Below, piece after piece: positions 39,879-61,717 of a stretch of 64,000 nucleotides of DNA. Source of the DNA: [Archangium] primigenium (lineage in GTDB: Bacteria; Myxococcota; Myxococcia; Myxococcales; Myxococcaceae); the NCBI RefSeq assembly GCF_016904885.1, contig NZ_JADWYI010000001.1, forward strand, positions 7,113,224 through 7,177,223, written 5' to 3'. How positions within the stretch are numbered: the first letter of the stretch is position 1; each line of letters starts with the position of its first letter. The notes under the pieces were generated by a model. That model did no database searches. It was not told the origin of the DNA and worked only from the letters and a program-made list of their open reading frames with translations. Made by a program: the position numbers and the translations under genes.

Positions 39879-40035
39879 GGGGGGAATCCAGACCACGAGA
39901 CGGGTGACGGGCGCCTGGACGAGGACCGCGGGCGTGGGGGTTGAACGCCGCGAGTCATCCTGGGCAGTTGCGTGCGGGTAAGCTCAGCGGTGCGTGCTGG
40001 AATGGACCCTGCACTCACCCCGCCGCATGCCAACC

Positions 40036-41991
40036 ATGAAACGCATTCTTCCGCTGTTCCTCGTCGGGTGGACGTTCGCCTGCATCAACGTCCCCGACAT
40101 CGAACCCGAGCCCGTGCCTGAAATCCCGGAGGAGAACAGCCCACCGGACGCGGGAACGCCCCTGGCTGACTTGCGCGTCTCCATCACGGAGCCGGTGGAC
40201 AGGGCCTACACGAGCACCGCGGTCACGCTGACGGTGGAGGTTCGAGGAGGGGTCGCGGACACGGTCCAACTGCTCAAGGACGGGGAGCGCCTGACGACGC
40301 TCACGCCGCCCTGGAAGTACACCTGGGACACGACCCATGAGGCGGAGCGGGACTACAGCCTCACGGCACGCGCCCTGCGCGGGACCAAGGCCTTCACCAG
40401 TTCGCCCGTGGTCGTGGTCGTGGATCGAACCCACCTCCAGGTGGCCACGCGCACGCCCGCCCACAACGCCGCCAACGTGGATTCCAGTCAGCCCATCCGG
40501 GTGACCTTCACCAAGCCCGTACGAGCGGAGACGCTCGGTGACACCACGGTGAGCCTCGCGGTCGCGGGCGTGCTGGCAGACAAGACCCTTACGCTGTCCG
40601 CGGACGGCAAGGAGCTGACGATCACGCCCAAGGAGACGCCCGACTTGCCCGCGAGGTTTTCGATCGGGCTGAGCCGAGGCATCACCGACCTGGCGGGCAA
40701 CGCCCTGATGTTGCCCGGCACGCCATGGAGCTTCGAGGTTCCCGAGTGGTACGTCCTCAGCGATGCCCTTCAGGCGGTGCCCACGGAGGGCACGGGGTTG
40801 AAGGATCCCGCGATGGTCCTCGACTTGAATGACAACCCCATCGTGGCGTGGAGCGAGGAACTGACACCGGGAGGCCGAACGGCGATCTTCGCCTCCAGAT
40901 GGAATGGGCAGGGCTTCGAATCCTTGGGGGGAGCGCTCAATGGAACCTTCACGGGCTCGGCGTACCACCCGGAACTCGCGCTCATGGGAGATGGACACCC
41001 TGTCGTCGCCTGGCACGAGTCCGACGGCTTCAACGAAAACATCTACGTGAAGCGTTGGACGGGAACGACGTGGCAAACGGTTGGGAACGGGGCGTTGTCC
41101 GCGGAAACCGACACCCGCTCCAAGCCGGTGCCAACGCCCGCGATCAAACCGACCATCGCCGCGCGTCAAGAAGAACTCTACGTCGCATGGGAGGAGAAGA
41201 CCGTCGAGGGGTACTCGACGATCCACGTGTGGAAGTCATCTCAGGGTGGACCCTTTATGGGTGTGGGCAACGCAACAGGCACGGTGAAGGCGTACCCGGG
41301 TGCGACGAATGGAGCGAGTCCAGCGCTGACCCTGACCGCCGAGGGTCAGCCCATCATCTGCTTCCAGGAACAGACAGCACCCCAAGGCGAGGAATCACGA
41401 ATTCACGTGATGTCGCTGGTGTCTGGCTCATGGGCCTTCGCGACTCCCCCTCCCCGGCTGGATTCGACGCCTCCGAATCCAGGGGGATTGACCGCGAACC
41501 CGGCGTACTCAGAGTCCACTGACTGCTCTCTGTCGACCAATGACCTCAACAGTACAACGTATCTCTCCTGGACCGAACCGTCCCAAAAAGACGGTCCGAC
41601 AGACATTCATGTATTCCAGATGGCTGGTGCGCAGACGTGGAGCAGAGTCGGCACTCCACTGAGCCAATATCCTGGCCGCACTTTCGCCAGCCACTCCAAG
41701 ATCCGTTCGTCGTCACACGCCATGCCATTCGTAACTTGGCAAGAGCAGGAATGGCAAGAGAACGGCGAACTCAAGAAAAATCTACTAATCAGTGCGTGGA
41801 ATGAAAAGTGGCGCACTACATCTTCTCCTCAAAATCGCCTCACCCTCAAACACAGCAATCGCGCAGACCTATTAGTAGATTCGCACAATCGGCCAATGAT
41901 TTCATGGTTTGAGAGTACACACAATGGCTCCACATTTACAGGAAGCGAACTTCGACTCAGCAGACAAAACAAAACCGCCATACAGGACTGA
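40036..41991 (+). CDS. Secreted protein with Ig-like N-terminal domains and C-terminal repeated W..E...I.V..W.G..W...G blades (beta-propeller-like); 3' third low-GC
   Basis: Signal peptide MKRILPLFLVGWTFAC; at least five internal repeats (VVAWHESDG..IYVKRWTGTTWQTVGN etc.); GC falls from about 65% to about 48% after about 41.4 kb. Confidence 0.45.
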   Translation: MKRILPLFLVGWTFACINVPDIEPEPVPEIPEENSPPDAGTPLADLRVSITEPVDRAYTSTAVTLTVEVRGGVADTVQLLKDGERLTTLTPPWKYTWDTTHEAERDYSLTARALRGTKAFTSSPVVVVVDRTHLQVATRTPAHNAANVDSSQPIRVTFTKPVRAETLGDTTVSLAVAGVLADKTLTLSADGKELTITPKETPDLPARFSIGLSRGITDLAGNALMLPGTPWSFEVPEWYVLSDALQAVPTEGTGLKDPAMVLDLNDNPIVAWSEELTPGGRTAIFASRWNGQGFESLGGALNGTFTGSAYHPELALMGDGHPVVAWHESDGFNENIYVKRWTGTTWQTVGNGALSAETDTRSKPVPTPAIKPTIAARQEELYVAWEEKTVEGYSTIHVWKSSQGGPFMGVGNATGTVKAYPGATNGASPALTLTAEGQPIICFQEQTAPQGEESRIHVMSLVSGSWAFATPPPRLDSTPPNPGGLTANPAYSESTDCSLSTNDLNSTTYLSWTEPSQKDGPTDIHVFQMAGAQTWSRVGTPLSQYPGRTFASHSKIRSSSHAMPFVTWQEQEWQENGELKKNLLISAWNEKWRTTSSPQNRLTLKHSNRADLLVDSHNRPMISWFESTHNGSTFTGSELRLSRQNKTAIQD

Positions 41992-42069: not shown

Positions 42070-42255
42070 ATGGCCCGAGAACTGCTGCCAGACACCTTGT
42101 CGGTCCGCGTGAAGGACTTGCTGCCCGTCCATCCTCCGCAACCCAAGGGCGGACGGCCCTGGAAGGAGGACCGGCTCGCGCTGCGCGGCATCATCTTCGT
42201 CCTCAAGGTCAACATCACGTGGGACTCGCTGGCCCGCCTAAGCACCCGGACATAG
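42070..42255 (+). pseudogene. IS5-family transposase N-terminal fragment
   Basis: GGRPWKEDRLALRGIIFVLKVNITWDSL matches the conserved IS5/IS427 N-terminal block. Confidence 0.5.
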
Positions 42256-42272
42256 ATAATGTCCACCCCAGC

Positions 42273-42810
42273 ATGGAACCGCTGAGGGTGGACGATTCGG
42301 TGCGTGAGCGGCTGCGGGACATCAGCCGCTCCTCGGATGTGGATGCCGACGAGCGCGACCGGGTCCAGATGGTCCTGCTTGCCGCCGAGGGCTGGAGTGC
42401 ACCGCACATCGCACGCCACCTGGGCGTCAGTGACAAGACAGTGCGCCGACTGCTCAAGGGCTGGCGTGAGCGCGGCGAGCAGGCCCTCTTCAAGACTTTG
42501 CCTGGGCCAGCGCCTGACTTCGAGCACCAGCAGCGCGTGCACCAGGCACTGCACCTGCTGCTGCAGCAGCCACGCACCTGGAGCGCCAGCCAGTTGTCTC
42601 ACGCCCTGCAGGAGCATAGCCTCCGTCTCGGCGTGCGTCAGGTGCGCCGCTACCTCGCGGCCATGGGCGCCAGCTGGCGGCGTACCCAGCTGAGCCTGGC
42701 CCACAAACAACAGCCCGCTGCCGTCACTCGGGCGCGAGCGCGCCTCAAGCGCATGGAAAAAAAGCCCGCGAGGGAAGGTTAGACCTCTACTTCCTGGACG
42801 AGTGCGGCTT
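42273..42810 (+). pseudogene. IS630-family transposase 5' fragment truncated by IS3 insertion
   Basis: HTH RVQMVLLAAEGWSAPHIARHLGVSDKTVRRLLKGWRE, then LDLYFLDECGF (start of DDE domain) running into the IS3 end. Confidence 0.55.
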
Positions 42811-42871
42811 CTGGGACTGGCCCGCTTTTGTGGACATACCTCGTAAGTCGGCTACACGGGAGGTAGTGTCC

Positions 42872-43183
42872 ATGGAACGAAGGAAGAGGCGCAGCTTCAA
42901 CGAGGAGTTCAAGGCCGAGGCGGTCCGACTGGTGCGCGAGGGCGGCAAGAGCGTGCCTCAAGTGGCCAGGGACTTGGACCTGACGGATTCGGCCCTGCGC
43001 AACTGGGTGAGGCAGGCGGAGGTGGACGAGGGCAAGGGCCCGGCGGGCGCGCTCACCACGGCCGAGCGGGAGGAATTCGCACGGCTGCGCAAGGAGGTGC
43101 GCCAGCTGACGATGGAGCGTGACTTCCTAAAAAAAGCGGCGGCCTTCTTCGCGAAGGAGGGCTCGACGTGCAGTTCGAGCTGA
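42872..43183 (+). CDS. IS3-family transposase OrfA (HTH)
   Basis: MERRKRRSFNEEFKAEAVRLV...LRKEVRQLTMERDFLKKAAAFFA. Confidence 0.7.
   Translation: MERRKRRSFNEEFKAEAVRLVREGGKSVPQVARDLDLTDSALRNWVRQAEVDEGKGPAGALTTAEREEFARLRKEVRQLTMERDFLKKAAAFFAKEGSTCSSS
43126..43133 (+). promoter_or_regulatory. IS3 programmed -1 frameshift site A-AAA-AAG
   Basis: ctaaaaaaagc run at the OrfA/OrfB overlap. Confidence 0.6.
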
Positions 43184-44043
43184 TGGACGCGCAGAAGGCC
43201 CACTTCCCCGTGAAGTTCATGAGCCAGCAGTTGGGGGTGTCGCGCTCGGGCTACTATGCGTGGCGAGGGCGCCCGGAGTCCGCGCGGCGGGCGTCGGACC
43301 GTGCACTGTCCGAGGAAGTCACCCGGGTGCACCACGCCAGTCGCCGCACGTACGGCAGCCCGCGAGTGCATGCGGAGCTGCGAGCCCGCGGCCAGCGGGT
43401 GAGCCGCAAGCGCGTGGTGCGGCTCATGCGCGAGCAGGGCCTGGCCGCACGCAGGCGGCGGCGCTACGTGGTCACCACGGACTCGCGCCACCACCAGCCC
43501 GTGGCGCCCAATGTGCTCGCGCGGGACTTCTCTCCGGCGCAACCCAACACCACCTGGGCAACAGACATCACGTACGTCGGCACGCGCGAGGGATGGCTGT
43601 ACCTGGCGGTGGTGCTCGACCTGTTTTCGCGCAGGGTGGTGGGCTGGTCCATGAGCGATGCCATCGAGCGGCACCTGGTGCTGGCCGCCCTGGATATGGC
43701 GCTCGAGGGCCGTCAGCCCCCACGCGGGCTGGTGCACCACTCGGACCGGGGCAGTCAGTACGCCAGCGAGGACTACAGACGTGCCCTGGCGACACGGGGC
43801 ATTGAGTGCAGCATGTCGCGCAAGGGCAATTGCTGGGACAACGCCGTGGTGGAGAGTTTCTTCAGCACCCTGAAGCAAGAGCTCGTCTACACCACGGACT
43901 TCACCACGCGCGCGCAGGCCCGGCTGGCCCTCTTCGAGTACATCGAGGCCTTCTACAACCGGCAGCGTCGCCACTCGACCCTGGGCTATGTCAGTCCTGT
44001 GGCTTTTGAGCTTGCGGCCTTACCGCAGAAGTTGGCAGCATAA
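43168..44043 (+). CDS. IS3-family transposase OrfB (DDE integrase core)
   Basis: WATDITYV...HSDRGSQY...NAVVESFFSTLKQE rve-domain motifs. Confidence 0.8.
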   Translation: MQFELMDAQKAHFPVKFMSQQLGVSRSGYYAWRGRPESARRASDRALSEEVTRVHHASRRTYGSPRVHAELRARGQRVSRKRVVRLMREQGLAARRRRRYVVTTDSRHHQPVAPNVLARDFSPAQPNTTWATDITYVGTREGWLYLAVVLDLFSRRVVGWSMSDAIERHLVLAALDMALEGRQPPRGLVHHSDRGSQYASEDYRRALATRGIECSMSRKGNCWDNAVVESFFSTLKQELVYTTDFTTRAQARLALFEYIEAFYNRQRRHSTLGYVSPVAFELAALPQKLAA

Positions 44044-44131
44044 CCTCACTGTCCACGTCAGCGGGCCAAGCTCAGGAGAGCCACGCCAGCCGAGCAAACC
44101 CACACGACAAATGCACAAGCCCAAACGAGTC

Positions 44132-45172
44132 TCAACCTTGTCGCCTGGGAACAACAAGTCCTCTTGAGAGACGACGAAGAACACGCCGCCTTTGGCGATG
44201 CTTGTATAGTTTATGAGCATTGTCTCCTTGCTCATTCTGCAAAGCAGTCTCTTCATCCATTATCTGGAATTCAACAAGCGTAAAAACGATTCGGTTCTTT
44301 CGCTCGCGTGAATCCTCCTCTGGGCGAGGGAGATACGCATCCATCCGGAGAGGCACATCAACAATGAAATTCAATGCACGGTAAGTATTCCCTGAATATA
44401 AATTACGACCGCGATCTTCTCGGTCCTCATAGTCAGGGTCCAACTGCAACTGCGACGCAAATTGCCTCAAATGAGGATTGCCTTCCAAAATCAACCTGAA
44501 GGGCAGCAATGTGTTTTCGGTTTGACCAGGAACAACAAAATTGAACGGGAAAAGATGTTGCGTCAGGAAGTACAGGACGGGAAGAACATCTTCTCTCGTC
44601 TTTGTAATAATGCGAAAGCGCGTTCGGTCATAAATCTGCGCCGCAACCGTTTCCTTTTTCGCCAACAATTTCGTAATTAGGGAATCCTGCGTCTTGATTG
44701 AGTGCGCGAACTCAACCACAGGCAAACCCTTTTCCTGAATCAAATTCGCAACCCGAAGAACCTTGGCCAACACCAATCTGGACAACTCTACTTCTGAAAA
44801 AGACAAACGGTGAAGCAAATCCCTTCCCTCTATATGCTGAATAACGTGCATCACCTTTAAGACGATACACGCGATGCGGCGGTACCGAGGCAAACCTTTC
44901 ACGCCAGAGGCAAACAAAAACAAGTCATGAATCTCGTTTGGCTCCGCGACAACATCCGCAACACGATAATCAAACGTCTTTCTTAAATACTCAACGGCAT
45001 CAGCAAGAACTTTTCGCGCCCATTGTTCATCTTCGACGCGATTCGTGTCGATTTGACACAGCTGTAGAAAACGATCGACTTCGTCTCGCCCCTGGAAGTG
45101 CATCCGACGCCAGTCGATGACAGAGCCTCCACGGAGGATGAGTCGAATGCGCTCAAGCTCACGGAGACCCAT
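44132..45172 (-). CDS. RelA/SpoT-homolog (RSH) synthetase-domain nucleotidyltransferase, small-alarmone-synthetase-like; alternative start further upstream possible
   Basis: Ordered motifs HSIKTQDSLITKLLAKKE, DRTRFRIITKTRED, YRALNFIVDV and VEFQIMDEETALQNE parallel the RelQ/SAS motifs GRVKPVASILEKARRK, DIAGLRIM, YRSYHLVV and EIQIRTLAMNFWA; locus GC about 46%. Confidence 0.5.
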   Translation of the reverse strand: MGLRELERIRLILRGGSVIDWRRMHFQGRDEVDRFLQLCQIDTNRVEDEQWARKVLADAVEYLRKTFDYRVADVVAEPNEIHDLFLFASGVKGLPRYRRIACIVLKVMHVIQHIEGRDLLHRLSFSEVELSRLVLAKVLRVANLIQEKGLPVVEFAHSIKTQDSLITKLLAKKETVAAQIYDRTRFRIITKTREDVLPVLYFLTQHLFPFNFVVPGQTENTLLPFRLILEGNPHLRQFASQLQLDPDYEDREDRGRNLYSGNTYRALNFIVDVPLRMDAYLPRPEEDSRERKNRIVFTLVEFQIMDEETALQNEQGDNAHKLYKHRQRRRVLRRLSRGLVVPRRQG

Positions 45173-45340
45173 GTCCGCAACGGAACACACGGGGATGTCG
45201 GGCAGTTGTCGAATAGCTGGGTCGGACTTCACGCCCGCGTTTCTAGCCGAGCGGTAACCCCGTGGGAAGGGGAACCCCCAAAAGAAAGGCCGCCACCCCC
45301 TTGGGTGACGGCCGTTCACGAAGACAGCTCGGGGTACAGT

Positions 45341-45829
45341 CTACTTCGCAGCCACTTCCCGATTGTCGCGGTACTCGGTCTGCTTCACCAGACGACCGTC
45401 GGCGGAGAACTCCTTGACCATGCCCTGGCGAAGTCCGTCCGCGTACTGCTCCACCTTCTTGACCGTTCCGCTAGCGAACAACTCAGTAACCTCTCCATGG
45501 AAGTTACTGCGCTTGAAGTTGGCGGTCCCCGTCTTCTGGCCCTTTTCATCGAAGAAGGTCCACAGGCCCATGCGGAGACCATTCTCCGACAGGCCTTCCG
45601 CCTGCTTCATCCCATTGGGATGGAAATAGACCGTCGTCCCATGCGGAGTGAACTCTTTCACATCCGCTTTGATGCACGCGGCCATATCGCCCAGCTTCTT
45701 GTTGGCCTTCCGCTCTTGCCGCGTTCCACTGGGGCAGTTCAAATCGGTGGAATCCTTGGCGAACGAAGTCGGCGCAACAACCATCGCCGCGAACACACCA
45801 ACAACTCCGGTCCACTTCTTAAGCGACAT
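45341..45829 (-). CDS. Secreted MORN-repeat protein (YwqK-family-like)
   Basis: Signal peptide then repeated G..V.YH.NG....G...NG...G.W..Y..G MORN-like units; co-directional and 22 bp upstream of the RSH gene. Confidence 0.45.
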   Translation of the reverse strand: MSLKKWTGVVGVFAAMVVAPTSFAKDSTDLNCPSGTRQERKANKKLGDMAACIKADVKEFTPHGTTVYFHPNGMKQAEGLSENGLRMGLWTFFDEKGQKTGTANFKRSNFHGEVTELFASGTVKKVEQYADGLRQGMVKEFSADGRLVKQTEYRDNREVAAK

Positions 45830-45943
45830 GACGCGTTCCTTTCGACTGAGCGGCAATGCTCTCTCCGCTAATTAATAGACGCGATCGAAAACGCTCTATT
45901 CATTTACCTCAGCGGAGCGCAACACGAAACCCGTTGCTCACAA

Positions 45944-45990
45944 AATGAAAAGCCCCACCCTCTAAAGGGTGAGGCTCCGCAAAACGTTCA
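45944..45990 (-). terminator. Rho-independent terminator downstream of the cysteine-rich lipoprotein gene
   Basis: On minus strand GCCTCACCCTTTAGAGGGTGGGGC followed by TTTTCATTTT. Confidence 0.4.
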
Positions 45991-46021: not shown

Positions 46022-46945
46022 CTATCGCCGCAGCTGCTGGCACACGGGATTGCCACCCGTGAAGAAGTAGCCCGCCTGGATAGTGGTCGAACCAGAAGGA
46101 CGGCACAGATACGTGTCGAAGTAAGCGTCCTTCAAGTTCCCCGAAGTGCGAGTGAAATTCAGCAGCAATCCCTCGTTCAGAATATCGAACTGCCGAGCGG
46201 CCGTGTTCACGTAGAAGAACTGAGCCAGCCCAGCGCGCGTCGAAGGCCAATCCGCATCAGTCCGGTACGCACGAACGCGAACAAGGAAGGCGTCCGGATT
46301 GGTTGCGCCAGCGCACTTGTTGGAGTTCACCTCGTAGCCCGTGCTCTCCACGGAGTAGATCACGGGGCCCGAGCTGGACGCGCTGCTCCACGCAGGACGA
46401 CCCGTCGAGAAGTTCTCGCAGCTCGCCTCGGCAACGGGGGCCGGAGCGCACTTGCTGCTGCTGCAGTACTGGCCGTAGCTGCAAGTGGTCTGACCGCTGC
46501 CCGAGCAGGTGGTCTCGGCGGGGCGGTTCTCGCAGGTCTTCGTCGCCGTGTTGCAGGTCTGGTTCGCGGCGCACTGCGCATCCGACGTGCAACCCGCGGG
46601 GGCCGGCGTGGTGCCATCCGTGCAGACGCTGTACGAGGTGGAGCACGACAGGGTCGAGGCGTCCGACACCCGCGTGTCGCCCTGGCACAGCGGCGTCGTG
46701 TCGCACTTGCAGATCAGGGGCGTTCCCGTGCCGCTCAGCGCCTCGCACCGCTTCGCGGAGGTCGGGCAGTCCAGGTTGGTCGTACACGTCTGCACACAGA
46801 CCTGAGCCTGGGGGTGACAGATCTCACCCTCGATGCAATCCCCATCCGACGAGCACGCCAGGCTCGTGCGGCCACCATCACACGCCATCATCAGGCTCGC
46901 GGCGCTCAGCGCGGCGAACATCAACATCATCTTCCGAAGCTGCAT
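46022..46945 (-). CDS. Cysteine-rich repeat lipoprotein (Myxococcus cysteine-rich repeat type)
   Basis: Lipobox-like LMMAC, then many C-x(3-4)-C/DCP repeats. Confidence 0.5.
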   Translation of the reverse strand: MQLRKMMLMFAALSAASLMMACDGGRTSLACSSDGDCIEGEICHPQAQVCVQTCTTNLDCPTSAKRCEALSGTGTPLICKCDTTPLCQGDTRVSDASTLSCSTSYSVCTDGTTPAPAGCTSDAQCAANQTCNTATKTCENRPAETTCSGSGQTTCSYGQYCSSSKCAPAPVAEASCENFSTGRPAWSSASSSGPVIYSVESTGYEVNSNKCAGATNPDAFLVRVRAYRTDADWPSTRAGLAQFFYVNTAARQFDILNEGLLLNFTRTSGNLKDAYFDTYLCRPSGSTTIQAGYFFTGGNPVCQQLRR

Positions 46946-47168: not shown

Positions 47169-49205
47169 TCAGAACGTGAACGGGAAATCGATGGGCTCTC
47201 CCTGAACCTTGTGCTTCGGGAAGTTCCACCCCTTGATGAGCCCCGAGATGCAGGTCGCCATGTAGGTCGACCGGAACTCCCCCGTCTGACAGGACACGTT
47301 CTTCGTCTTGCCATTGGGCTGGATCGTCCAACGCATCACCAGCTTGCCGCTCAAGCCCGGGTCCTTCTTCTTCTGCTCTCCCACGCACTTCACGATGGCG
47401 GGCTTGTTGTTGAGCACCACCTGCATGATGTCCGACTGACCCAGCTTGTCGATCGTCGCGCCGCCTTCACCCGGCTCGGGCGGGATGTAGGCCGTGCGGC
47501 CCTTCGCCGAGGCGCTGCTCGTGGCACTGGCCTTCTTCGTGCCAAAGAGCTCGTCGAACTCGTCATCCGCGTTCCCACCCCCGCTGCTCTTCGCCGCGGG
47601 CTTGGCACGCGCCGTGATCTCCTCGGCATCGTCGTTGCTCGAGCCGCGCGAGGGCGCGGACGCGCCACGGCTCGTGGACGTGCCTCGCTTGGTCCCCGTG
47701 CGGTCCGGAATCTCGGCACGCGCCACCTGCGCGGGCGCCGTCTTGGGCTCCTCCGCGGGCTTCGTCGGCTCGGCGGCGGGCGGAGGCGTCGCCGCGGGAG
47801 GCGTCGCCGCGGGCGTGCCCGCGGCCGCCACGGCGGGAGGCGTCGTCGTGGGCGTGGCGGCGGTGGGAGGAGGCGTCGTCTCCGCCGGGGGCGTCGGCGC
47901 GGCGGCCACCGCCGTGGCCGGGGGCGTCGGAGCCGGCTCGGCGGGCTTCACGGCGGCGGGAGCCTGGGCCTGGGCCACGGGCTGGGGCGCCGCGGGCGGC
48001 TCCGACGGACGGGACGCCAGGAAGAAGCCCACACCCCCCAACATCAACAGGGCCCCGGCGGCGATGCCAATCACCATGCCCGTCTTGCCGCCTTGCTTGG
48101 GCGCCGCCGGGGGCGGGTAGCCCGGGTAGGCCGGAGGCGGTGCGTAGGCCGGAGGCGGCGCGTACTGCTGCGGCATGGGCTGAGGGTAGCCCTGGGGCGC
48201 GGGCGCATAGCCCGGCGCGGGGGCGGGCATGTACGGCGCCGGCGCGGGCGCGTCCGGCAGCAACGGGCTCTTGGTCACGGCCGCGTCGGGGGGCGGCACG
48301 TCCAGCAGGCCCGACGAGGCGGGCACGGCCTTCTCCTCGGCCGCGGCCTTGGCGGCGGGCTTGGACAGGGCCTCGTTCTCCTCCTTCACCAGCGAGGCGA
48401 GCACACTCGCCGCCGAGGGCTTCCAGCCCGAGTCCTGTGCCGAGGGCGCCACGGGGGCCGGGGTCTCGGCCCGAGCGGCGCGCGAGGAGGCGCCCGCGCT
48501 GAACGCGGATTCCACCGGGCCCGAGGACGCGGACGACGACGCCGCCACCGGCGTGGGCTCCACGATGACCGGACGCGTCGGTCGCGGCGCGAGCACCGAG
48601 GCGAGCTCCGTGGCCTCGGAGAGCGGAATCCAGTCGCTGAAGCCCGCGCGCCAGCACAGGCTGTCCGGACCCACCTCGCCCTTCTCCCAGTGGTCCTTCA
48701 CCTTCTCCATGGTGAGCGGGCCCACCTGCTTCTCGTCGATGGCGACGAACCACTCGTGAGAGACGGCGGGCTTGGTGCTGCTCGCCTCGGCCTCGGCGAG
48801 CTTGCGCACCGCATCGCTCGCGTCCGACACCGCGGCGACATCCGCATCGCCCACCTCGCCCGCGGGGAGCTTGTGGGAGCCCGAGTTGAGCACCTGGTCG
48901 AACACGGCGCCAATCTCGTCGTCCTCGACGCCCCCGAAGATGCCTCCTTCGGGAGGCGTCCCCAGGCTCGCCGGAAGACCGAAGCCGTCCTTCTGATCCT
49001 GGGCGCCCGAGGACGAGCCGTTCGAGGCCGAGGCCTCGTGGGCCGACCCCTCATCCTTCGCCGCCGCCGAGCCAGCGGAGCGAACCACAATGTTATGGCC
49101 GCACTTCTTGCAACGAACCTTGACGCCCTTGGCGCCCACCTTGTCGTCGCTAATGGAGTACTGCGCGCGGCAGCTGTCGCAGACGAAACGCATCGTTCCC
49201 CGCAA
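47169..49205 (-). CDS. AgmX-like protein: MJ0042-type zinc ribbon, GYF-like domain, Pro-rich linker, TM helix, TonB-C-like domain
   Basis: N-terminal FVCDSCRAQYSI...VRCKKCGH zinc ribbon; GYF-like WFVAIDEKQVGPLTMEKVKDHWEKGEV; C-terminal region TonB-C-like; directly downstream of the giant TPR gene as agmX is of agmK. Confidence 0.5.
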   Translation of the reverse strand: MRGTMRFVCDSCRAQYSISDDKVGAKGVKVRCKKCGHNIVVRSAGSAAAKDEGSAHEASASNGSSSGAQDQKDGFGLPASLGTPPEGGIFGGVEDDEIGAVFDQVLNSGSHKLPAGEVGDADVAAVSDASDAVRKLAEAEASSTKPAVSHEWFVAIDEKQVGPLTMEKVKDHWEKGEVGPDSLCWRAGFSDWIPLSEATELASVLAPRPTRPVIVEPTPVAASSSASSGPVESAFSAGASSRAARAETPAPVAPSAQDSGWKPSAASVLASLVKEENEALSKPAAKAAAEEKAVPASSGLLDVPPPDAAVTKSPLLPDAPAPAPYMPAPAPGYAPAPQGYPQPMPQQYAPPPAYAPPPAYPGYPPPAAPKQGGKTGMVIGIAAGALLMLGGVGFFLASRPSEPPAAPQPVAQAQAPAAVKPAEPAPTPPATAVAAAPTPPAETTPPPTAATPTTTPPAVAAAGTPAATPPAATPPPAAEPTKPAEEPKTAPAQVARAEIPDRTGTKRGTSTSRGASAPSRGSSNDDAEEITARAKPAAKSSGGGNADDEFDELFGTKKASATSSASAKGRTAYIPPEPGEGGATIDKLGQSDIMQVVLNNKPAIVKCVGEQKKKDPGLSGKLVMRWTIQPNGKTKNVSCQTGEFRSTYMATCISGLIKGWNFPKHKVQGEPIDFPFTF

Positions 49206-49347
49206 GTCTCAGGAATAACGAGAGAAAATCCGTTGGAATCGTAGAGGTGGCGTCCGGGGGGGTCAAGGACACCGCTCTTGCCCGCCCGGTCGCTCTTTCA
49301 ACGCGTGAACTCCGAAGGGGATCTCACGCTCACTGCACATCTCCTGG

Positions 49348-52300
49348 CTACTTCCGCACCTGCACCTCCACATCCGTACCTATCGCGACACGCAGCTCGC
49401 GCAATTCCTCGGAGGTCGCGAAGACGAGCAGTTCCTTGAGCTTCGCCTTGGGCGTCACCCGGAAGGCCGAGCCGGTCTCCTCCAGCACCATGCGCTTGAC
49501 CGGTTCGCACTCGCCCGCGGCCAGGAGGCCCGCGCGCGCCGCCGTCAGCTCCACGTGGTCGAAGTACTGGCGGACATCCGCGGGTGTGGCCACCGGCACG
49601 TAGACGCGTGCCACCTTGGCCAGCGCCGCGCGACCCTGCTCGCTGAAGCCCTTCTCCAGCACGCGCCGCTCGGCGTCCACCCCGCGGGGGTCCACCGTGA
49701 GGCGCAGGTTGGGCACCACCAGGCTGAGCGCCGCCTGGACCACCGCCTCGAGCCGCTCCGGGGCCAGGCGCTGGCTCCACGCCAGTTCCGGGCGTGCGAG
49801 CGCGAACGCGCGGCCCAGCATGTAGTACGCCTCCTTCTGGCCCTGTTCGGCGAAGAAGCGGCCGCCGGCGCGAATGCACGCCGGATGCGTCTGCAGCACC
49901 TCCACGTGGAGCCGGGGGTCTGGCGTCGGCTCGTTGGAGCGCTTGGCCATGTTCTCGCGTCGGGCCACCAGGTGCGGCGAGTACAGCTCCACCGCGTCCA
50001 TTCCGAAGAGCCGCGCCACGTAGCGGTAGTGCTGCACGTGGTACTCCTGCGAGCTCGGCAGATCGATCCGGTGCTTCTTGGGGATGATCTGGTAGTTCGT
50101 GAAGGGCACCGCGTACAGGTGGCCGATCTGCTCGAAGAGCAGGCCCATCAGCTCGGTGAAGGGCCCGCGCAGCCGGGGATGCAGCAGGTGCGACTGCCAC
50201 ATGCGATCCGGCAGTGCCCGCTGGGCCACCTCCTTGAGCTTCGCGTAGGGACCGAGCCGCGAGAGGATCTCCTTCTCGTCCTCCCCCGCCTCGCCGAGCA
50301 GGCCCGACACGGCTTGGGCGGCCATCCACGCGCCGTCGTAGTCCTTGCGCCGCGCGAACAGCCGCACCAACTGGGAGCAGACCTTGTGCGTGTCCGTGGT
50401 GTGCGGCAGGGCCCGGCGCAGCGCCGCGATGGCCTCGTCCTCCTTGCCCGGGGAGGCCGCCGCCAGCTCGGCGTAGGTCTCCTGCACGGAGGCATCATCG
50501 GGCAGGCCCTTGGCGACGAGCCCGTAGGCCGCCACCGCGTTCTCCTGGTTCTTGAGCACCTGGCGGTAGAGGTCACCCAGCGCGCGCCACAGCCCCATGC
50601 GCGCCCCGTGCGTGTCGGGCGTCTTCGGCATGCGCCCGATCATCTTCGCGTAGTTCTCCTCCAGCGCGCGCCACTGGCCCGCACCACCCAGCATCGCCTC
50701 GAGCGCGCTGAAGGCCTCGATGAATCGGTGATCCAGGTCCAGCGCCGTGTTGAAGGCCTCCGCCGCGCCGTCCACGTCCCGCAGCTCGTCCCGACGCAGC
50801 TCGCCGAGCGCGAACCACACCCGCCGGGCCTTGTTCGGCTCGGACGCCAGCGCGGGCAGCCGCAGCATGCGCTGCAGCATGTCCGCGGCCTTCTGGCTCT
50901 GGCGCGTCTCGCGCAGCAGCACATAGAGCGCGTCCAGCACCTCGAGCGACTCCGGAACCAGCTTGAGCGCGCCGGAGTACGCGTCGATCGCCTGGTACGG
51001 GTCCTTGAGCTTCTCGCGCGCGAGCTGACCGAGATCCAGGAGCACCTTCGCCTTGGCCTCGCCCTCCAACACCTGGGCGAGCTGCTGGCGCAGGTCACCC
51101 GCGCGCTCCCACCGGCCCGAGGCATCCATGAGCGTCACCAGTGCGCGCAGGGAGGCCTCGTGGTTGGAGTCCACCGAGAGCGCCTTCTCGAAGTGGTTCT
51201 GCGCGCGGTCCGTCTGGTTCAGCTTGGCGTGGATGTCACCCAGCTGCCAGTAGACCTCCACCACCTCCATGTCGGTGAGCTCCTCGCGGTGGTGGATGAG
51301 GATCGTCTGGAAGATGCGCAGCGCGTCCTCGTAGCGCTTGGCGTGCTGCACGAGCAGGTGGCCGTAGCCCTCGAGCACCGGCAGGTAGGTCGCGTCGAGA
51401 TCGTAGGCCTTCTTGTACGAATCGAGCGCCTTGCCGCGGTTGCCCAGCTTGTCCGCCACGTAGCCCAGGCGGTAGAGCTGACGGCACAGCTCCGCGGCCA
51501 GCGCCGTGTCCTTCTCCGCGATGGCGCGCTCGGCCATGCGGCGCACCACGATGTCGAGCATGCGCTCGCACGCGAGCCAGTCCTCGCGCGCGCTGTAGAC
51601 CTCCGACAAGGGCTGGGCGGCCTCCAGGCTGTCCGGGGCGTAGCGCAGCGTCTCCTCGTAGTAGTGCGTGGCCGTCTCGGGGTCGCCCTTGGTCTCGGCG
51701 TTGTAGCGCGCCACCTCGAGCAGGGCCTTGGCCTTGGCCTCGGCGTCCTCGGTCTGCTGCGCCTCCTGCAAGAGGGTCTGCTCGTAGCCGCCCCAGTCCT
51801 TCTCCTGCTCCTGGATGCCCTTGAGGGCCCGGATGCTGGCCAGGTGGCCCGGGTCGATCGCGATGGCGCTCTGGTAGGCCGTACGCGCGCTGCCCGAGTC
51901 CATCAGCATGTCCTCGTGCATGCGGCCCATGCGGTAGTACAGCTCCACCGCCTCGGGGGTGTGCCCCGCGAGCTGCGCCTCCTGCTGTAGGACGTCCAGC
52001 GCGTAGGGCCAGTTGCCGCTGCGCTCGTAGAGGTTGCCCAGCGCGTGCAGCGCGGGACGGCAGCCCGGATCCATGCTCAGCGCGTAGTGGTACGTGTTGA
52101 CCGCCCGGTCCACCTGCTTGAGCTGCTGGTGGTAGACGTTGCCGATCTCCACGTACAGCTCGGCCTGCTCCTGCGTGGACGTGGCCAGCTGGAGCTGCCG
52201 CTCGTAGGCGACCACCAGGTCCTCCCACCGGCCCTGGTCCCGACGCAGGCGGATGAGGGTCTTGATGGCCTGGAGGTTCTGCGGGTCGATGGCGAGCACG

Positions 52301-55300
52301 CCCTCGATGAAGGCGTCCGCGTTGGCCGGGTTCTGGTAGGTGTCCTCCCAGATGCTCGCCGAGCGGAACAGCACCCGCACGCGCTCGCGGTAGTCGGTGA
52401 TGACCTCGAGCATGCGCTCGTAGATGGCCAGCAACTCCGCCGGTTGATCCAACCGCGTGTGCAGCCGCTCCAACGACTCCAGGGCCTGGAGGTTGTAGGG
52501 CTCGAACTCGAGCGCCTGCCGGTAGGCGGCCACCGCGGGCTCGTCGTCTCCGATGTCGCGCTCGTAGACGCTCGCGACGTCGAGCTGGATGCGGGCCCGC
52601 TCCTCGACGGTGGCCGCCAGGTCGCGCGCGCGCATCAGCGTGGAGGCCACGTCCTTCCAGGCCTTCTGGCGACGGTAGAGCGCGGTGAGCACGCCCAACG
52701 TCTCCGCGTCCGGCTCCAAATCCAGGGCCCGCAGCAGCGCGCTCGCGGACTCGTCGGGGTCACCCTGCTCGTCATGGACGCGGGCGATCTCCCGGAGGAT
52801 GGACTTGCGCGTCTCGATGGAGTCCGCGGCCTCGATCTTCTGCTCGAGGGCCACCACGTACTCGCGCGAACGGCCCCGGCGCTGGAACATCCCCGCCAGG
52901 CCATCGAGCGCGGTGACGTTCGTCGGATCGAACTCCAGGATCTTCCGCAGCGAGGACTCCGCCGCCTGGGCATCGTCCAGCTTCAGGTCGTGGACGCGCG
53001 CCAGCGTGGCGTACATGCGCTCGGCCAGGGGACCTCGCGGCAGGGCATCCGCCACCTCCTCGTAGACGGCGGCCAGCTCCTCGTGGGAGCCCGTCTCGTC
53101 GGCGAGTCGCTCCACCTCCTCGCGCAGCGTGTCGTCCGAGGCGTCGAGCTGCAGCGCCCGGCAGAGCGCCAGGAAGGCCACGTCCTTCTGGCCCAGGCGC
53201 TCTTCCTGCACGCGCGCCAGTTCCTTGAGGGTGGCCAGCTTCTCCTCTTCCGTGACGAGGTGCGGCAGGTAGCGGTCCACCACCTGCGCGTAGGCCCGCC
53301 AGTCGTTGTTCGTCCGGTAGAGCTCGCACACGCGCCCGTACGCGTCCCGGTGGGCGGGGTCCAGCTCCAGCACCTTCTCCAGCGCGCCCGCGGCGAGCTC
53401 CGGCTTGTTGCCCGCGCCCGACCACAGGTCCGCCACGGCGAACCACGTGGCCACCGCCAGGTCGCGCTCCTCGGCCTGCAGGTGCACCTGCACCTTGAGC
53501 TCGAGCGCGCGGACGGCGTCGTTGTAGGCCCGCAGGGACACGAAGAGCGCGTGGACCCGCTCCAGGTCCGCCACCGCGTGGGGCTCCACTTCCAGCGCGC
53601 GGCGGGCCGCGTCCAGCGCCTCCTCGCGGCGACCCACGCCGGAGAGCACCTCGGCCAGACGCAGGCGCAGCGCCTTCACGCCCTCGGCCGACTCCTGCAA
53701 CGGCACGAGCCGCCGCAGGATGCCCACCAGCTCCTCGGCGGGCCCCGTCTCCTCGTACAGCTCGCGCAGCGTGTCCAGCACGCCCCGGTGGCGGGGATCG
53801 CGCTCGAGCGCCGCCTTGAGGTGGCCCACCGCCGTCTCGGGCTGCTTGAGCAGGCGGTAGAGCACCTGGCCCAGGCGCTCGTTGAGCCGCACGACCTCGC
53901 GCGGGTCCAACGTCTGCGCCAGCCGCTCCGCCAGGAGCGTCCGCAGCTCCTCGTGCCGCCCCGCCCGCTCGTACAAGGCCTCCAGCGAGGTGAACGCCTG
54001 CTCGTTGCGCGCGTTCTTCGCCAGCAGCTCGCGGTACAGGTCGATGGCGCCGTCCAGTTGGCCCAGCCCCTCGGAGGACACCTGCGCCATGCGCATGAGG
54101 ACGCGCTCGCGCTCCGGGCCCGTGACGCGCTCGGACTGCAGCTTCAGGATGTTGTACAGCTTGTCCTGGGCTCCGGCCGCGTCATAGAGGCCCTCGAGCA
54201 GCCGCGCCGACGCGAGGTGCGAGGCGTCCAGCGCCAGCACCTGCTCGAAGGCGGACGCCGCGCGGTCCATGCTCTGGAGCTTCTCCTGGGCGAGCTGCCC
54301 CAGGCGGAAGAGGAAGCCCACCTTGTCGGCGGTCTGCTCCGCCGTGGCGGCGAGCGCCTCCAGCACTGGCGCCAGCTCCTCCCAGGCCTCCAGCGTGATG
54401 TACAGCCGGTCCAGCGCCACCAGCGACCGGGTCTGCGACGAGGGGTCCAGCGTGCGCGCGCGCTCGTAGTAGATGATGGCGCGCTCGGGCTCGCGCAGGC
54501 GCGACTCGAAGAGATAGCCCAGCTTGAGGCACATCTCCGCCGCGTCGCGCACCTCGGCCACGCGCGGCAAGGCCTCCTCGTAGGCCACGACCAGCTCGTC
54601 GTAGGAGCCCGCCGCGTCCGTGGCGTTCTCCAGGCGCGCGCGCAGCTCGCGGTCGTTCGGGTCCTCCTTGAAGGAGCGGAAGAGCGCGAGGAAGGTGAGC
54701 TCCGGCTCCCCCTGGCTCTCGCGCAGCGTGGCCAGCTCGCCGAGCAGCGTCTTGCGCTCGTGCGCGTCCGGGGACACGCCGACGCGCGTCTCGATGAGCG
54801 AGGCGAGCCGCGCCACGTCCCCGCTCGCCCGGAAGGCGCGCAGCAGCGTCTCCACCGCGAGCAGGTTCTGCGGCTCGCGCTGCACCAGCGCCTCCAGGCG
54901 GCCCACCGTGTCGGCGTGGTTGGGCTGCACGGAGAGCACCGCGCCGTAGAGCGCCAGCGCGCCCGCCTTGTCGAGCAGCTTCGTCTCGCGCACCACCGCG
55001 AGGCGGAACTTCAGCTCCAGGCCCTCCTCCGGCGTCACCAGCGCGATGCGGCGGGCAAGCACGTCCGCCAGCTCCGGCCAGCGCTCCAGCTTCTGGCACA
55101 GGCCGTCCATCCGGGTGAGCGCCGCGGCGTCATCCGGCTTCACGTCCAGCAGGCGCCGCAGGGTGGCCAACGCGCCCAGGCCATCCTGGAGCTCCGCCTC
55201 CTGCAGCACGGCGATCTGCAGCAGCACCGAGGCCCGGCGCGCCGGCTCCTCGGCGCTCGCGAGCTGACGGCGCAGCACCTCCAGCAGTTCCTGGGGCGTG

Positions 55301-58300
55301 CCCTGCTCGGACACCAGGCGCACCACGCTGTCGAGCGCCTCGGTGTCCGTGGGGCTGAGCGTCAGCACCTTGCGCCACGAGGCCAGGGACTCGTCGTCCT
55401 CACCCAGGCGCGCCTGCAGCCGGGCCAGCGCGCGGTACAGCTCGGCGCGCGCCGCGTCTCCCGCGCGAGGCGCGATCTCGGAGAGCACCGCCGCGAACTC
55501 CTCCGCGGCCCCCGCCTTGTCCATGAGCTGGAGGCACAACTCCAGCGTGCGCGCGTCGTCCGGCATCTCGCGCAGGGAGCGGGTGGCCGACAGGAAGGCC
55601 ATCTCCGCGTTCTCCAGCGGTCCCGCGTACATCTCCGCGATGCGGCGCAGCAGCACCGAGCGCTCCTGCGGCACGGGCTCGGCGGAGACGCGCGACTCCA
55701 ACATCTGCACCTGCTTGAGGTGGTCACCCACCGCCGCGAACACCGGCTCGAGCGCCACGGCGGCCTGACCGCGCAGCGGGCTGTCCGAGCGCGCCATCTC
55801 CTCCAGGGCCCCCACCGCTCCGGCGTGGCCCGCCCGGCGGCGCAGCACGTCCTGGTACAGCTCCAGCGCGCCGCGCGGATCGTCCAGGCGGCTGAACTTG
55901 AGCCGACCCAGGCGCACGCGCAGATCACTCCCCTCCTCGAGGGCGTTGCGCGCGTCGGTCAGCTGGATCTCCCGCTCGATGTGCTGGGCGAGCTCCGGCC
56001 AGCGCTCCATCTGCGTCAGCACGCGGCCGAGCAGCTTGAGGGCATTGGCGTCCTCGGGGCGGCGCTCCAGCACGTCGCGGTACGTCTGCGCCGCGAGCGC
56101 CTTGTCGGAGAGCGTCTCCTCGGCCAGGTGCGCCAGCTCGAAGAGCAGGTTCACCTGCGCGGGCAGCGACGGCTCCGCCGCCACCTGCCGGCGCATCACC
56201 AGCGCCAGCTCCCGGTGCGCGCCCGTGCGGCGATGCACACGCGAGATGGACTCCAACACCTGCTTGTTCTTCGGGTCGCGACGACTGACCTCCTCCAGCG
56301 CGCGCACCGCCAGGTCGTAGCGCTTGAGCCGCCCGTCGTAGATGGCCGCGAGCCGCCGCCACAGGTCTCCCGCCAGGGGCTCGGTGCTGCCCCGGTCGAG
56401 CTGATCCTCGTAGGCCGCCGCGACTTCCTCGAACGAGCCCGAGTCGGCCGCGAGCCGCTCCAGGTCATCGCACACGCCCTCGCCCTGCGGCGCCTCGTTG
56501 AAGGCGCGCAGCCGCGCGGCGAAGGCGAGCGACGTCTGGCCCAGGGCCTCGCGCAGGGTGGCGATCTCCTGCACCCGCTCCAGGCGCAGCGCCGGCTGCG
56601 TGCCTGGCAGGAGGATCTCCAGCACCTCCACCAGCTTGCGCGTGTCGTTGAGGCCCCGGTGGACGGGCTCCAGCAGACGGGCCGCCTCCACGCGCTGGGC
56701 ATCGAGCTGGAGCATGCGCTCCAGTCCGGCGACGGCCTGCGGGTCGCCCGGGGCCAGGCCCATCAGGGCGCGGTAGGCGCTCAGGGCCTCGGCGTGACTG
56801 CCCTCCTTCTCCAGCAACTGGGCCCGGCGCAGGATGAAGCCCCGGCGCGCCTCGTTGTCCGTGGCCAGCTCCGCGAGCTGATCCAACACGTCCGCCTGCT
56901 CCAGCGGCCGCTTCGTCCGGGAGAACAGCTTGTCCAGCGCGAGCAGGCCGTCCTCGGCCTTGCGGATGGCCAGCGCCGAGCGCCACGTCTCGATGGCCTT
57001 GGCGTCATCGCCCGCGGCGGCATGGGCCTCGCCCGCCTTCACCAGCAGGGCGCGCCGCTCCTCGGGCGCCGTGGCCAGCGCCGACTGGGCGGCGTAGACC
57101 TCCGACAGGCTCTTGGCGTTCTGGCCGCGCTCGTACAGCCGCGAGAGCATCTCGAGCGCCTGACGATCCTGGGGCGCATCCTCGAGGACGCGCTTCCAGA
57201 CACTCGTGGCCTCCTCCGTCTGGCCCATCTGCTCGCGCAGCTCGGCGGCGCGCCGCAGCAGGTTGAGCGCCGTCGAGTCGCCCCGAGGCAGGTCCAACCC
57301 GGCCTCCTCGTACAGCTCGGCCAACATCTCGTGCGAGCCCGTCTCGCGCGCCAGCCGCTCCAGCTCCGGCTGGAGCTTCTCGCGCTCCACGCCCTGCGAG
57401 AAGGCCTTCACCGCCGCCATGAAGGCGAGCGACGGCTGGTGCATGTCCTGCTCGTAGATGCGGCGGATGTCCGCGGTGAGCTGTGCCTTCTCGGCGATGA
57501 GCGCGGACTCCAGACGCGTCTCCCGCAGCGCCACGCGCCGGGCATGGTCGCCCAGCCGCGCGAGCACGGGATCCAGCACCTCCAGCGCGCCCACGCTCAT
57601 GGGCACCGCCGCCCTCACCCACTCCTCGAGCGCCGCGCGGGCACCCGGGTGGCCGGGATCCTCCGCGAGGATGCCCTGGTAGAGCTGGAGCGAGGCGTTC
57701 GGGTCACCCAGCGACGAGCGCAAGAGCTCCGCCAAGCGGAAGGAGACCTCGCGGCCCTGGGGGCTCTGCCCTTCCTGCGTGCGGCGCAGGCCGAGCGCCC
57801 AGGCCAGATCCTTGGGACGGCCCAGCTCGGTGTAGAGCCGGTCCAGGGCGACGGCGGCCTCGCGCTGGAGCGGATCCCGCTCGGCGATGGCGCGCCAGGC
57901 ATTGGCGGCGCTCTCCGAGTCGGACAGCTTGGACTCGTGCAGCAGGGCGGCCTCGCGCAGGTGCGCGAGTTGCTCGGACGGCTCGGACGCGGCGGCGGCG
58001 AGCTTCTCGAGCACCTCGGCGAGCGCGGCCCACTCCTCGCCCGCGCGGTGCAGGCGCTGCAAGGCGCGCAGGCAGTCGAGGCTGCCCGGCTCGAGCAGCA
58101 GCAGGGCCCGGAGCGACTTCAGGGCCGCGGCGCGATCATCGAGCTTCTTCTCCTGGACCTCGGCCAGCTCGCGCAGCAGACCCACGCGGATGGTGTCCGA
58201 GTCCCCTTCCTCGGACAGCTCGATGAGGATCTCCGCGTAGGAGTCCAGCGAGTCGGCGTCCTCGGCCGCCTGACGCGCGGCGGCGCGCAGCGCGGCGTCT

Positions 58301-61300: not shown

Positions 61301-61617
61301 AGCGCGTGCGTGTCCTGACGCGACTCGTGCACGGCCTTGAGGCCCAACAGCGCGGGACGCGGATCCTCGGCGAGCAACAGCGCGTGGCGCAGCAGCTCCT
61401 CGGAGCGCGTGGGATTGCGCAGACGCTCCTGCGCGAGCTGGCCCGCGCGCACGAGCACACGCGCCGCCTCGGCACCCGACGTCTCGCGGGCATGTCCCTC
61501 GTAGAGCCGGATGAGATCCTCGACGCGGCCCGCCTTCTCGAGCGAGGCCTCTACCTCGGCGAAAGGCCGGTCGGAGACACCACGCTCGGCGGGTCGGCGG
61601 AGGTTCGACAGATCCAT
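49348..61617 (-). CDS. Giant TPR-repeat protein (4089 aa), AgmK-like gliding-motility-complex protein
   Basis: Single uninterrupted ORF composed of TPR-like helical repeats throughout; size and AgmX-like neighbour match the M. xanthus agmK-agmX arrangement (established knowledge, not searched). Confidence 0.6.
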
Positions 61618-61624
61618 GAAGAGA

Positions 61625-61690
61625 AAGCCTCGCGAAAAAGAAAGGGGCGGGAGAGCGGCACTTTATCGCCCGCTCCCCGCCCCTCGCAAT
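61625..61690 (-). terminator. Putative rho-independent terminator after gene 61718..63577
   Basis: Imperfect GC hairpin GGGGCGGGAGAGCGG...CCGCTCCCCGCCCC followed on the minus strand by a T-rich run. Confidence 0.35.
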
Positions 61691-61717
61691 CGCGTAAATC
61701 CCGCCAACTGTCGAGAT

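Follow-up and report, generated by a model that had tools for sequence, protein, structure and literature searches.

A divergent RelA/SpoT-type protein encoded 3' of the gliding-motility genes gltI-gltJ in [Archangium] primigenium and other Myxococcia

The closest described relatives of the protein considered here are the RelA/SpoT homologue (RSH) enzymes. These include the long proteins Rel, RelA and SpoT, which carry TGS and ACT domains, the synthetases RelP and RelQ, and the toxic small alarmone synthetases (toxSAS) FaRel, PhRel and CapRel, which are encoded next to an antitoxin. A census of RSH proteins published in 2011 listed an unclassified "SYNTH[S]" protein in Myxococcus xanthus (YP_633016.1) and another in Sorangium. 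In the gliding machinery of M. xanthus, the Agl-Glt system, the G1 cluster comprises gltD-gltJ (MXAN_4870-4862), with a GltI of 4132 amino acids (aa) and with gltJ recorded as YP_633021 (Luciano 2011, the source of the glt gene names used here). Here we report on a 64,000-nucleotide stretch of [Archangium] primigenium (contig NZ_JADWYI010000001.1, positions 7,113,224 to 7,177,223 of the forward strand; hereafter the window, meaning the whole of this stretch), in which a gene at 44132..45232 on the minus strand encodes a 366-aa member of the NCBIfam family TIGR04552. This gene is the orthologue of M. xanthus MXAN_4858 and stands at the 3' border of the gliding-motility cluster G1, just outside G1 as it was defined (Luciano 2011). 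At the M. xanthus locus, the TIGR04552 orthologue is the only open reading frame (ORF) with RSH similarity; from this and from accession arithmetic, YP_633016.1 is probably MXAN_4858. A first-pass annotation of the window, made from the sequence alone, had instead grouped the gene with a MORN-repeat gene upstream as a foreign, low-GC module, either a new toxSAS toxin-antitoxin or defence pair or a secreted toxin with its immunity protein.

The intact minus-strand ORF ending at 44132 that had been reported is indeed present, and its start needs care. The longest open frame at the locus (45319..44132, 395 aa) has a spurious 5' part. The form that begins at GTG 45319 was rejected, as the annotated orthologues are 366 or 346 aa long, and its 29 extra codons overlap a terminator-like hairpin (45313..45288). 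We place the start at the GTG that gives 44132..45232; an alternative start at ATG 45172 gives 346 aa. Matches obtained with tblastn in other genomes reach into the residues upstream of this internal ATG, and the motif LPDxPV..V (residues 8-20), which lies just 5' of it, is kept across 18 orthologues. The protein is 99% identical to one from Melittangium boletus and 72-83% identical to the orthologues in Archangium, Cystobacter, Corallococcus and Myxococcus, with 75% for that of M. xanthus.

The match to TIGR04552 (E=3.8e-118) scores 394.8 bits, far over the cutoff of 125, and spans profile positions 3-352 of 352; the same profile is matched by all 44 of the diverse relatives that were searched. 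TIGR04562 also matches. The window gene, like MXAN_4858, is a full-length member of this pair of families located 3' of gltJ. The only Pfam matches of the protein are two below threshold, AIG2_2 and RelA_SpoT (PF04607), the latter at 23.4-23.7 bits against a cutoff of 27 and over profile positions 3-48 of 113 only. A single-sequence search against the sequences of the PDB gave no relevant match, and a profile built from the 44 diverse members found RelP (E=0.0019) and Staphylococcus aureus Rel (E=0.045). The AlphaFold2 model, built on 18 orthologues (pLDDT 76, pTM 0.77), has two domains, one all-helical and N-terminal (~17-167) and one alpha/beta and C-terminal (172-356). Foldseek agrees with an RSH-type fold, with weak statistics, and the fold is nearer to Rel, RelP and RelQ than to CapRel. 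The comparisons by profile and by structure thus find the three-dimensional fold of an RSH synthetase in the C-terminal domain. As to the nucleotidyltransferase first proposed for this ORF, the fold stands, by way of the family profile, while the Pfam score of 23.4 bits falls short of the cutoff.

The protein is therefore a distant RSH relative with a divergent RelA/SpoT-type domain. This nucleotidyltransferase domain takes up residues 171-366 (44135..44722, minus strand) and ends in a conserved Arg-rich tail. It is preceded by the family-specific, all-helical domain of residues 1-170 (44723..45232, minus strand), which is not an HD hydrolase domain. These 170 residues are an addition compared with RelP and RelQ and with Rel, RelA and SpoT alike, and the TGS and ACT domains of the last three are missing.

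The active site was read against the SaRelP-AMPCPP structure, from which the residue roles are taken (PMC5794853); residues were mapped by HMMER alignment to 6fgk, and conservation was counted over 314 full-length relatives. The four blocks of catalytic motifs quoted in the first-pass annotation are all there, on invariant columns of the family alignment, and HMMER pairs them with the motifs of RelP and Rel. Five motifs can be laid out along the minus strand. The segment S178-I-K180-x3-S184-x3-K188-x3-K192 (44657..44701) corresponds to R-V-K-x3-S-x3-K-x2-R of RelP, which makes the ATP phosphate contacts, and D202-R-T-R205-F-R207 (44612..44629) to D-x-x-G-x-R, with its Mg-binding Asp and adenine-stacking Arg; DxxGxR of RelP, RelQ and the long RSH proteins has here become DxxRxR. 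Y284-R-A-L-N288 (44369..44383) takes the place of the G-loop Y-R-S-x-H, E321-F-Q323-I-M-D326 (44255..44272) that of E-I-Q-I-R-T with the catalytic, Mg-binding Glu, and H340-K-L-Y343-K344 (44201..44215) that of H-x-x-Y-K, which contacts the ribose.

Eight of the 10 residues equivalent to the SaRelP set are retained, seven of them at 95-100%. The phosphate contacts of SaRelP K80 and K88 are kept as K180 (99%) and K188 (98-99%), and the alpha-phosphate contact of S84 as S184 (95-99%). The Mg ligand D107 is D202 (99-100%), E174, which serves in Mg binding and catalysis, is E321 (97-99%), the adenine-stacking R112 is R207 (98-99%), and the ribose contact H190 is H340 (95-99%). The eighth, the G-loop residue Y151 that stacks on the acceptor base, is Y284, found as Tyr in 81-91% and as Phe in 8-16% of the relatives (one or the other in ~97-99%). 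Several further positions of the motifs are equally constant, namely Q323 (96-99%), Y343 (96-99%), K344 (95-99%), R205 (99-100%) and D326 (98-99%); the last two, together with N333, G336, R346 and Q347, are invariant residues specific to this family. Position 288 is Asn in 97% of close relatives and His or Asn (44/38%) in distant ones. Relative to SaRelP numbering, the stretch from D202 to Y284 is longer by ~38 residues and that from Y284 to E321 by ~14, which suggests two insertions flanking the G-loop. Retention of these eight residues at 95-100% (the Tyr as Tyr or Phe) among proteins that are ~30% identical is the pattern expected under selection for catalysis.

The second line of evidence is the position of the gene. 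Of 80 genomic loci encoding relatives that were fetched and searched with the window proteins, 67 had enough flanking sequence, and in 59 of these the enzyme gene is preceded on its own strand by gltI and gltJ, with a gene order common to Myxococcaceae and Archangiaceae. In the window, the gltJ (agmX) orthologue occupies 47169..49205 on the minus strand. It shows the GltJ architecture of zinc ribbon (Pfam Zn_ribbon_4, E=5e-13), GYF domain (GYF_2, E=3e-17), Pro-rich region and C-terminal domain, and is 50-80% identical to the genes found upstream of the other enzyme orthologues. The gltI (agmK) orthologue (49348..61617, minus strand) encodes a TPR protein of 4089 aa, the size expected of GltI, whose C-terminal 1000 aa are 55-91% identical across loci. 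Thus, in most Myxococcia the enzyme gene is found 3' of gltI-gltJ on the same strand. In metagenome-assembled genomes (MAGs) of deeper-branching Myxococcia and in Anaeromyxobacteraceae, it comes right after gltJ with gaps of 72-172 bp, and the called genes of Anaeromyxobacter oryzae have the same order. Where gltJ directly adjoins the enzyme gene, eight of nine loci lack a terminator hairpin between them, and in these deep-branching lineages the two seem to share an operon. Insertions in MXAN_4858 behaved like glt mutants in development when M. xanthus was studied with barcoded transposons (bioRxiv 10.64898/2026.08.28.747804).

Taken together, we give an even chance to the proposal that the protein is a cytoplasmic, active and divergent RSH-type pyrophosphokinase with a family-specific N-terminal domain, inherited vertically and, in Myxococcia, encoded with gltI-gltJ. 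Neither a signal peptide nor a hydrophobic segment is present in it; this and the other calls of export or location below were made by sequence inspection and hydropathy. The enzyme would bind Mg-ATP and pass its beta,gamma-pyrophosphate on to a purine nucleotide, at the 3'-OH, so that an alarmone-like product results. Its acceptor specificity is likely to be altered by R205, D326, N333, R346 and Q347 and by the two insertions that flank the G-loop, and the N-terminal domain could regulate or localize it. More speculatively, in Myxococcia the enzyme might be expressed with the cytoplasmic Agl-Glt platform and act on or near it, or alternatively it might act in starvation-induced development.

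A number of observations weigh against this proposal. The glt linkage is confined to Myxococcia and was not seen in two other groups of loci. In the Polyangia-type lineages, the enzyme gene is divergent from lon, with a small membrane ORF between them, and a third clade has it among housekeeping genes, divergent from the enolase gene. Since the neighbours are conserved yet specific to each lineage, the core function is probably not specific to gliding, and the linkage to gltIJ would have been added in Myxococcia. Even within the window a terminator stands 5' of the enzyme gene, and a sigma-70 scan from that terminator to the start codon predicted no promoter. Motility was not overtly impaired by an earlier insertion in MXAN_4858, as mentioned in bioRxiv 10.64898/2026.08.28.747804 with reference to Pathak & Wall 2012. 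At the active site, the equivalents of two SaRelP arginines are replaced: R78, which stacks on adenine, by S178 (Ser or Gly in the family, not conserved), and R91, a phosphate contact, by A191 (Ala or Ser, not conserved). Next to these positions, Arg is found at 179 in 76% of distant members, and K192 is kept at 94-99%. The motif EIQIRT reads E-F-Q-I-(V/M/I)-D in this family, the Arg having become Val, Met or Ile and the Thr the invariant D326. The Pfam RelA_SpoT threshold was reached by no family member among those tested (21 of the 44 diverse relatives give matches, all below threshold, the best at E=4.8e-5), and our literature search found no biochemical study of TIGR04552.

The alternative that best survives these points is an active RSH-like pyrophosphokinase without any role in gliding, engaged in 3'-pyrophosphorylation of tRNA or other RNA, or in general stress or nucleotide metabolism, for which the gltJ neighbourhood would be mere inertia. 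We regard this as possible, if on the unlikely side. The change of conserved neighbours from lineage to lineage (lon and the small membrane ORF in one, enolase and an ORF of ~162 aa in another) is what it would lead one to expect, and a conserved, strongly basic C-terminal tail (R346, Q347, R354) would suit nucleic-acid binding. However, it does not explain why the gene should stand right after gltJ, apparently in one operon, across the deep-branching Myxococcia, nor why its transposon fitness pattern should resemble that of the glt genes (bioRxiv 10.64898/2026.08.28.747804). The fold also counts against this alternative, Rel, RelP and RelQ being nearer to it than CapRel is.

A less likely alternative, which we consider doubtful, is a pseudoenzyme or a sensor of nucleotides: the protein would bind ATP or an alarmone without turnover and would act, at the cytoplasmic face of the Glt machinery, as a scaffold or regulator. 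Compared with RelP, RelQ and the long RSH proteins, the Arg78 and Arg91 equivalents are lost, and EIQIRT has become EFQIxD, with a hydrophobic residue for Arg and Asp for Thr. All of the Pfam scores are below threshold, and the additional helical domain could serve for interaction with other proteins. However, both Mg ligands (D202 and E321), three phosphate contacts, the ribose His, the stacking Arg and the Tyr (as Tyr or Phe) are all kept at 95-100% where overall identity has fallen to ~30%. In our judgement, Mg-ATP-dependent catalysis with a remodelled acceptor site would fit this combination better than a pseudoenzyme.

The two remaining alternatives, those of the first-pass annotation, require the gene to be foreign or the MORN gene to be its partner. 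As to origin, the enzyme gene is an old, vertically inherited myxobacterial gene. It is not foreign, because Myxococcaceae and Archangiaceae share the order of genes around it, and its identity between genomes tracks that of GltI (r=0.93 over 55 loci). A GC content of roughly 46% had been given for both the enzyme gene and the MORN gene; this is about right for the former (~46-49%; GC 0.486, with GC at third codon positions, GC3, of 0.50) and not for the latter (57.6%; GC 0.576, GC3 0.74). The next large gene has a GC of 0.72 and a GC3 of 0.90 (the GC3 of gltJ is likewise 0.90), and the GC of the whole window is 0.685. Compared with other TIGR04552 orthologues, the window gene is unusual in its low GC3 and in having an insertion sequence (IS) of the IS3 family 54 bp downstream. 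Nevertheless, orthologues at the same syntenic position span GC3 values from 0.50 to 0.99 while their proteins remain 62-83% identical. For example, GC3 is 0.53 in Cystobacter fuscus and 0.55 in Citreicoccus, stands at 0.68 in both M. xanthus and Archangium minus, and reaches 0.95-0.99 in Pyxidicoccus, in Anaeromyxobacteraceae and in many MAGs. In most of these loci, among them those of all the low-GC3 genomes named here, gltI next door has a GC3 above 0.9. Because GC3 varies this widely at one position, low GC is no evidence of transfer, and the idea that it marks foreign DNA was rejected. GC3 has been lost locally in a gene that was inherited vertically, and the extent of the loss varies between lineages.

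The IS elements cited as a border of the supposed island are real. The IS3-family element (42808..44078, plus strand; orfA 42830..43183, orfB 43168..44043; Pfam HTH_Tnp_1 and rve) has imperfect 29-nt inverted repeats at 42808-42836 and 44050-44078 and lies in a convergent intergenic region, 54 bp from the enzyme stop codon. It is abutted by a fragment of another transposase, with the helix-turn-helix part only, at 42219-42782. Together these separate the enzyme gene from a convergent gene for a Big_5 surface protein (39994..41991). In Archangium and Cystobacter the same convergent Big_5 gene comes directly after the enzyme gene, so both insertions are later events.

As to partnership, the upstream, co-directional gene for a MORN-repeat protein with a signal peptide was confirmed. 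The MORN_2-repeat gene occupies 45341..45829 on the minus strand and encodes 162 aa from ATG 45829, which is preceded by AGGAA and is most likely the start. The product matches Pfam MORN_2 (PF07661) at 36.5 bits, above the gathering threshold of 29.6, and its M. xanthus orthologue does so at 49.8 bits. It begins with a Sec signal peptide, MSLKKWTGVVGVFAAMVVAPTSFA, followed by KD after the cleavage site, and is predicted to be periplasmic or secreted; Sec signals with AxA-type cleavage sites are kept in the MORN orthologues. The spacing of 22 bp that had been given between the two genes depends on the spurious GTG 45319. With the enzyme gene placed at 44132..45232, the gap is 108 nt, and it holds an intrinsic-terminator-like hairpin (45288..45313, minus strand) with an 11-bp stem of which nine pairs are GC, followed by TTTCTTTT. 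A hairpin between the MORN stop and the enzyme start is found in 37 of 43 orthologous loci, with stems of at least 9 bp in 27 of 43. Among shuffled sequences the corresponding figures are 27% and 3%, and on the reverse strand 5/43 and 0/43. The stem sequences differ between genera, and thus it is the terminator structure, not its sequence, that is conserved.

Further upstream is a gene for a Cys-rich putative lipoprotein with a lipobox-like N-terminus (46022..46945, minus strand; 307 aa, 25 Cys, no Pfam family), whose orthologues carry a lipobox (LAGC, LTGC or LTAC) and which is present in 46 of the 67 loci, between gltJ and the MORN gene. A second terminator-like hairpin (45949..45978, minus strand) lies 3' of it; the terminator noted earlier at 45.95 kb is therefore real, but it belongs to the Cys-rich gene and bounds no island. 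The M. xanthus counterpart of the Cys-rich protein may be MXAN_4860, a tag guessed from gene order; for this hypothetical protein, a 3.7-fold enrichment in outer-membrane vesicles is on record (PMC4158809). The MORN gene is found upstream of the enzyme gene in only 39 of the 67 loci and is absent in the other 28, and no distant lineage examined that keeps the enzyme gene has it. Its orthologues are 30-65% identical, compared with 62-83% for the enzyme. The MORN and Cys-rich genes are lineage-specific inserts between gltJ and the enzyme gene in one sub-lineage, and we take them to be transcribed apart from the enzyme gene and their products to be exported proteins, which do not work together with the enzyme in the manner of a toxin-antitoxin pair.

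For these reasons it is highly improbable that the two genes are a toxSAS toxin-antitoxin or anti-phage pair gained by horizontal transfer, in which the MORN protein would be the antitoxin. This reading draws on an RSH fold that is common to the toxSAS enzymes and on a low-GC gene beside IS elements. Against this stand the syntenic and vertically inherited locus, the GC3 range of its orthologues, the downstream and later insertion of the IS element, the absence of the MORN gene from 28 of 67 loci and from the distant lineages, and the conserved terminator between the two genes. MORN_2-repeat proteins are often annotated as YwqK-like. Here, no NCBIfam antitoxin model of the YwqK type or other was matched, the only NCBIfam match of the MORN protein being a weak one to the LIC20035 adhesin (23.8 bits against 250). 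Because it is exported and the enzyme has neither signal peptide nor hydrophobic segment, it cannot be a cytoplasmic antitoxin or immunity protein. PADLOC gave no match, and neither did searches for the family in plasmids and in IMG/VR. Unlike FaRel, PhRel and CapRel, then, the enzyme has no conserved adjacent antitoxin, occupies a fixed chromosomal position by vertical descent, and is closer in fold to the housekeeping RSH proteins than to CapRel. The toxin-antitoxin or defence reading would have meant a new toxSAS system, and this is not one. A secreted RSH-type toxin resembling Tas1 or the MuF-family adenosine 3'-pyrophosphokinase (APK), with the MORN protein as its immunity protein, is scarcely credible, since the enzyme has no signal peptide and no LXG, PAAR, Rhs or MuF trafficking domain, an immunity protein would have to reside in the cytoplasm of the producer whereas the MORN protein is exported, and the neighbours are glt genes with no secretion-system genes nearby.

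Beyond Myxococcia, an exhaustive search returned 745 clusters (at 50% identity) with E<=0.001. The named members belong to Myxococcota (Polyangiales, Nannocystaceae, Enhygromyxa and Anaeromyxobacter), and apart from one Bdellovibrio gene annotated as TIGR04552 the family was found here almost only in that phylum, including, in other Myxococcota, at sites away from glt. In the Polyangia-type loci, paired ExbB-ExbD-ExbD triplets are usually 5-9 kb off. The small, conserved ORF of these loci encodes 45-79 aa and lies 7-115 bp upstream of the enzyme gene on the same strand (L082-L087, at ~9700-9990 with the TIGR04552 gene at 10001); its product combines a lipobox-like LxGC with a transmembrane segment (LWGNLAVLAVTVGIF.GTLSLGR), and neither the window nor the Myxococcia loci contain this ORF. 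At a single Polyangia-type locus (L084, 11138-18014), genes for a histidine phosphatase, a CHAD protein, two Ppx/GppA phosphatases and polyphosphate kinase were seen 3' of the enzyme gene, a setting of nucleotide and polyphosphate functions.

In the third clade, an ORF of ~162 aa (161-164) follows just 3' of the enzyme gene, and in two of three loci its product has the Mrr_cat restriction-endonuclease fold. The arrangement looks like a lineage-specific two-gene operon. The ORF is at 11104-11598 in L089, 10996-11481 in L090 and 6231-6719 in L091; stop and start overlap or nearly abut, by a 4-bp overlap in L089 and L090, and Mrr_cat is matched in L089 and L091, with no Pfam match in L090. A full-length distant homologue (26% identity, E=1e-9) also turned up in a record labelled "Microcystis phage MaAM05" (MW495066.1, 274 kb), at 123414-124631 (L088 3842-5059). 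It is flanked by glyS, gatD and secDF/secF, and a phage association was rejected; the stretch looks like cellular rather than phage DNA.

Back in the window, 47169-63577 on the minus strand is the distal part of the G1 gliding cluster. Upstream of gltI, at 61718-63577, is an ORF for a 619-aa TPR/clathrin-like protein, which may be a gene of the AgmV region. An Rfam scan of 41.5-47.5 kb gave nothing above the gathering score.

What the locus offers is a family that is already curated yet unnamed, with an RSH fold and an apparently intact ATP and Mg site, and which lies below the Pfam RelA_SpoT threshold. With its M. xanthus orthologue beside the gliding genes and showing glt-like transposon phenotypes, it could be a second source of alarmone or a new RSH chemistry. 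It would be a bolder step, and one that we think unlikely to be right, to see in TIGR04552 an unrecognized RSH class dedicated to a cellular machine. At the gliding motor's cytoplasmic platform, the enzyme of Myxococcia would then make an alarmone-like nucleotide, or else pyrophosphorylate an RNA or a nucleotide bound to protein. In M. xanthus, (p)ppGpp triggers development. If such an enzyme did work at the motor, starvation or second-messenger signalling would be coupled directly to focal-adhesion assembly, to MglA-dependent polarity or to developmental aggregation.

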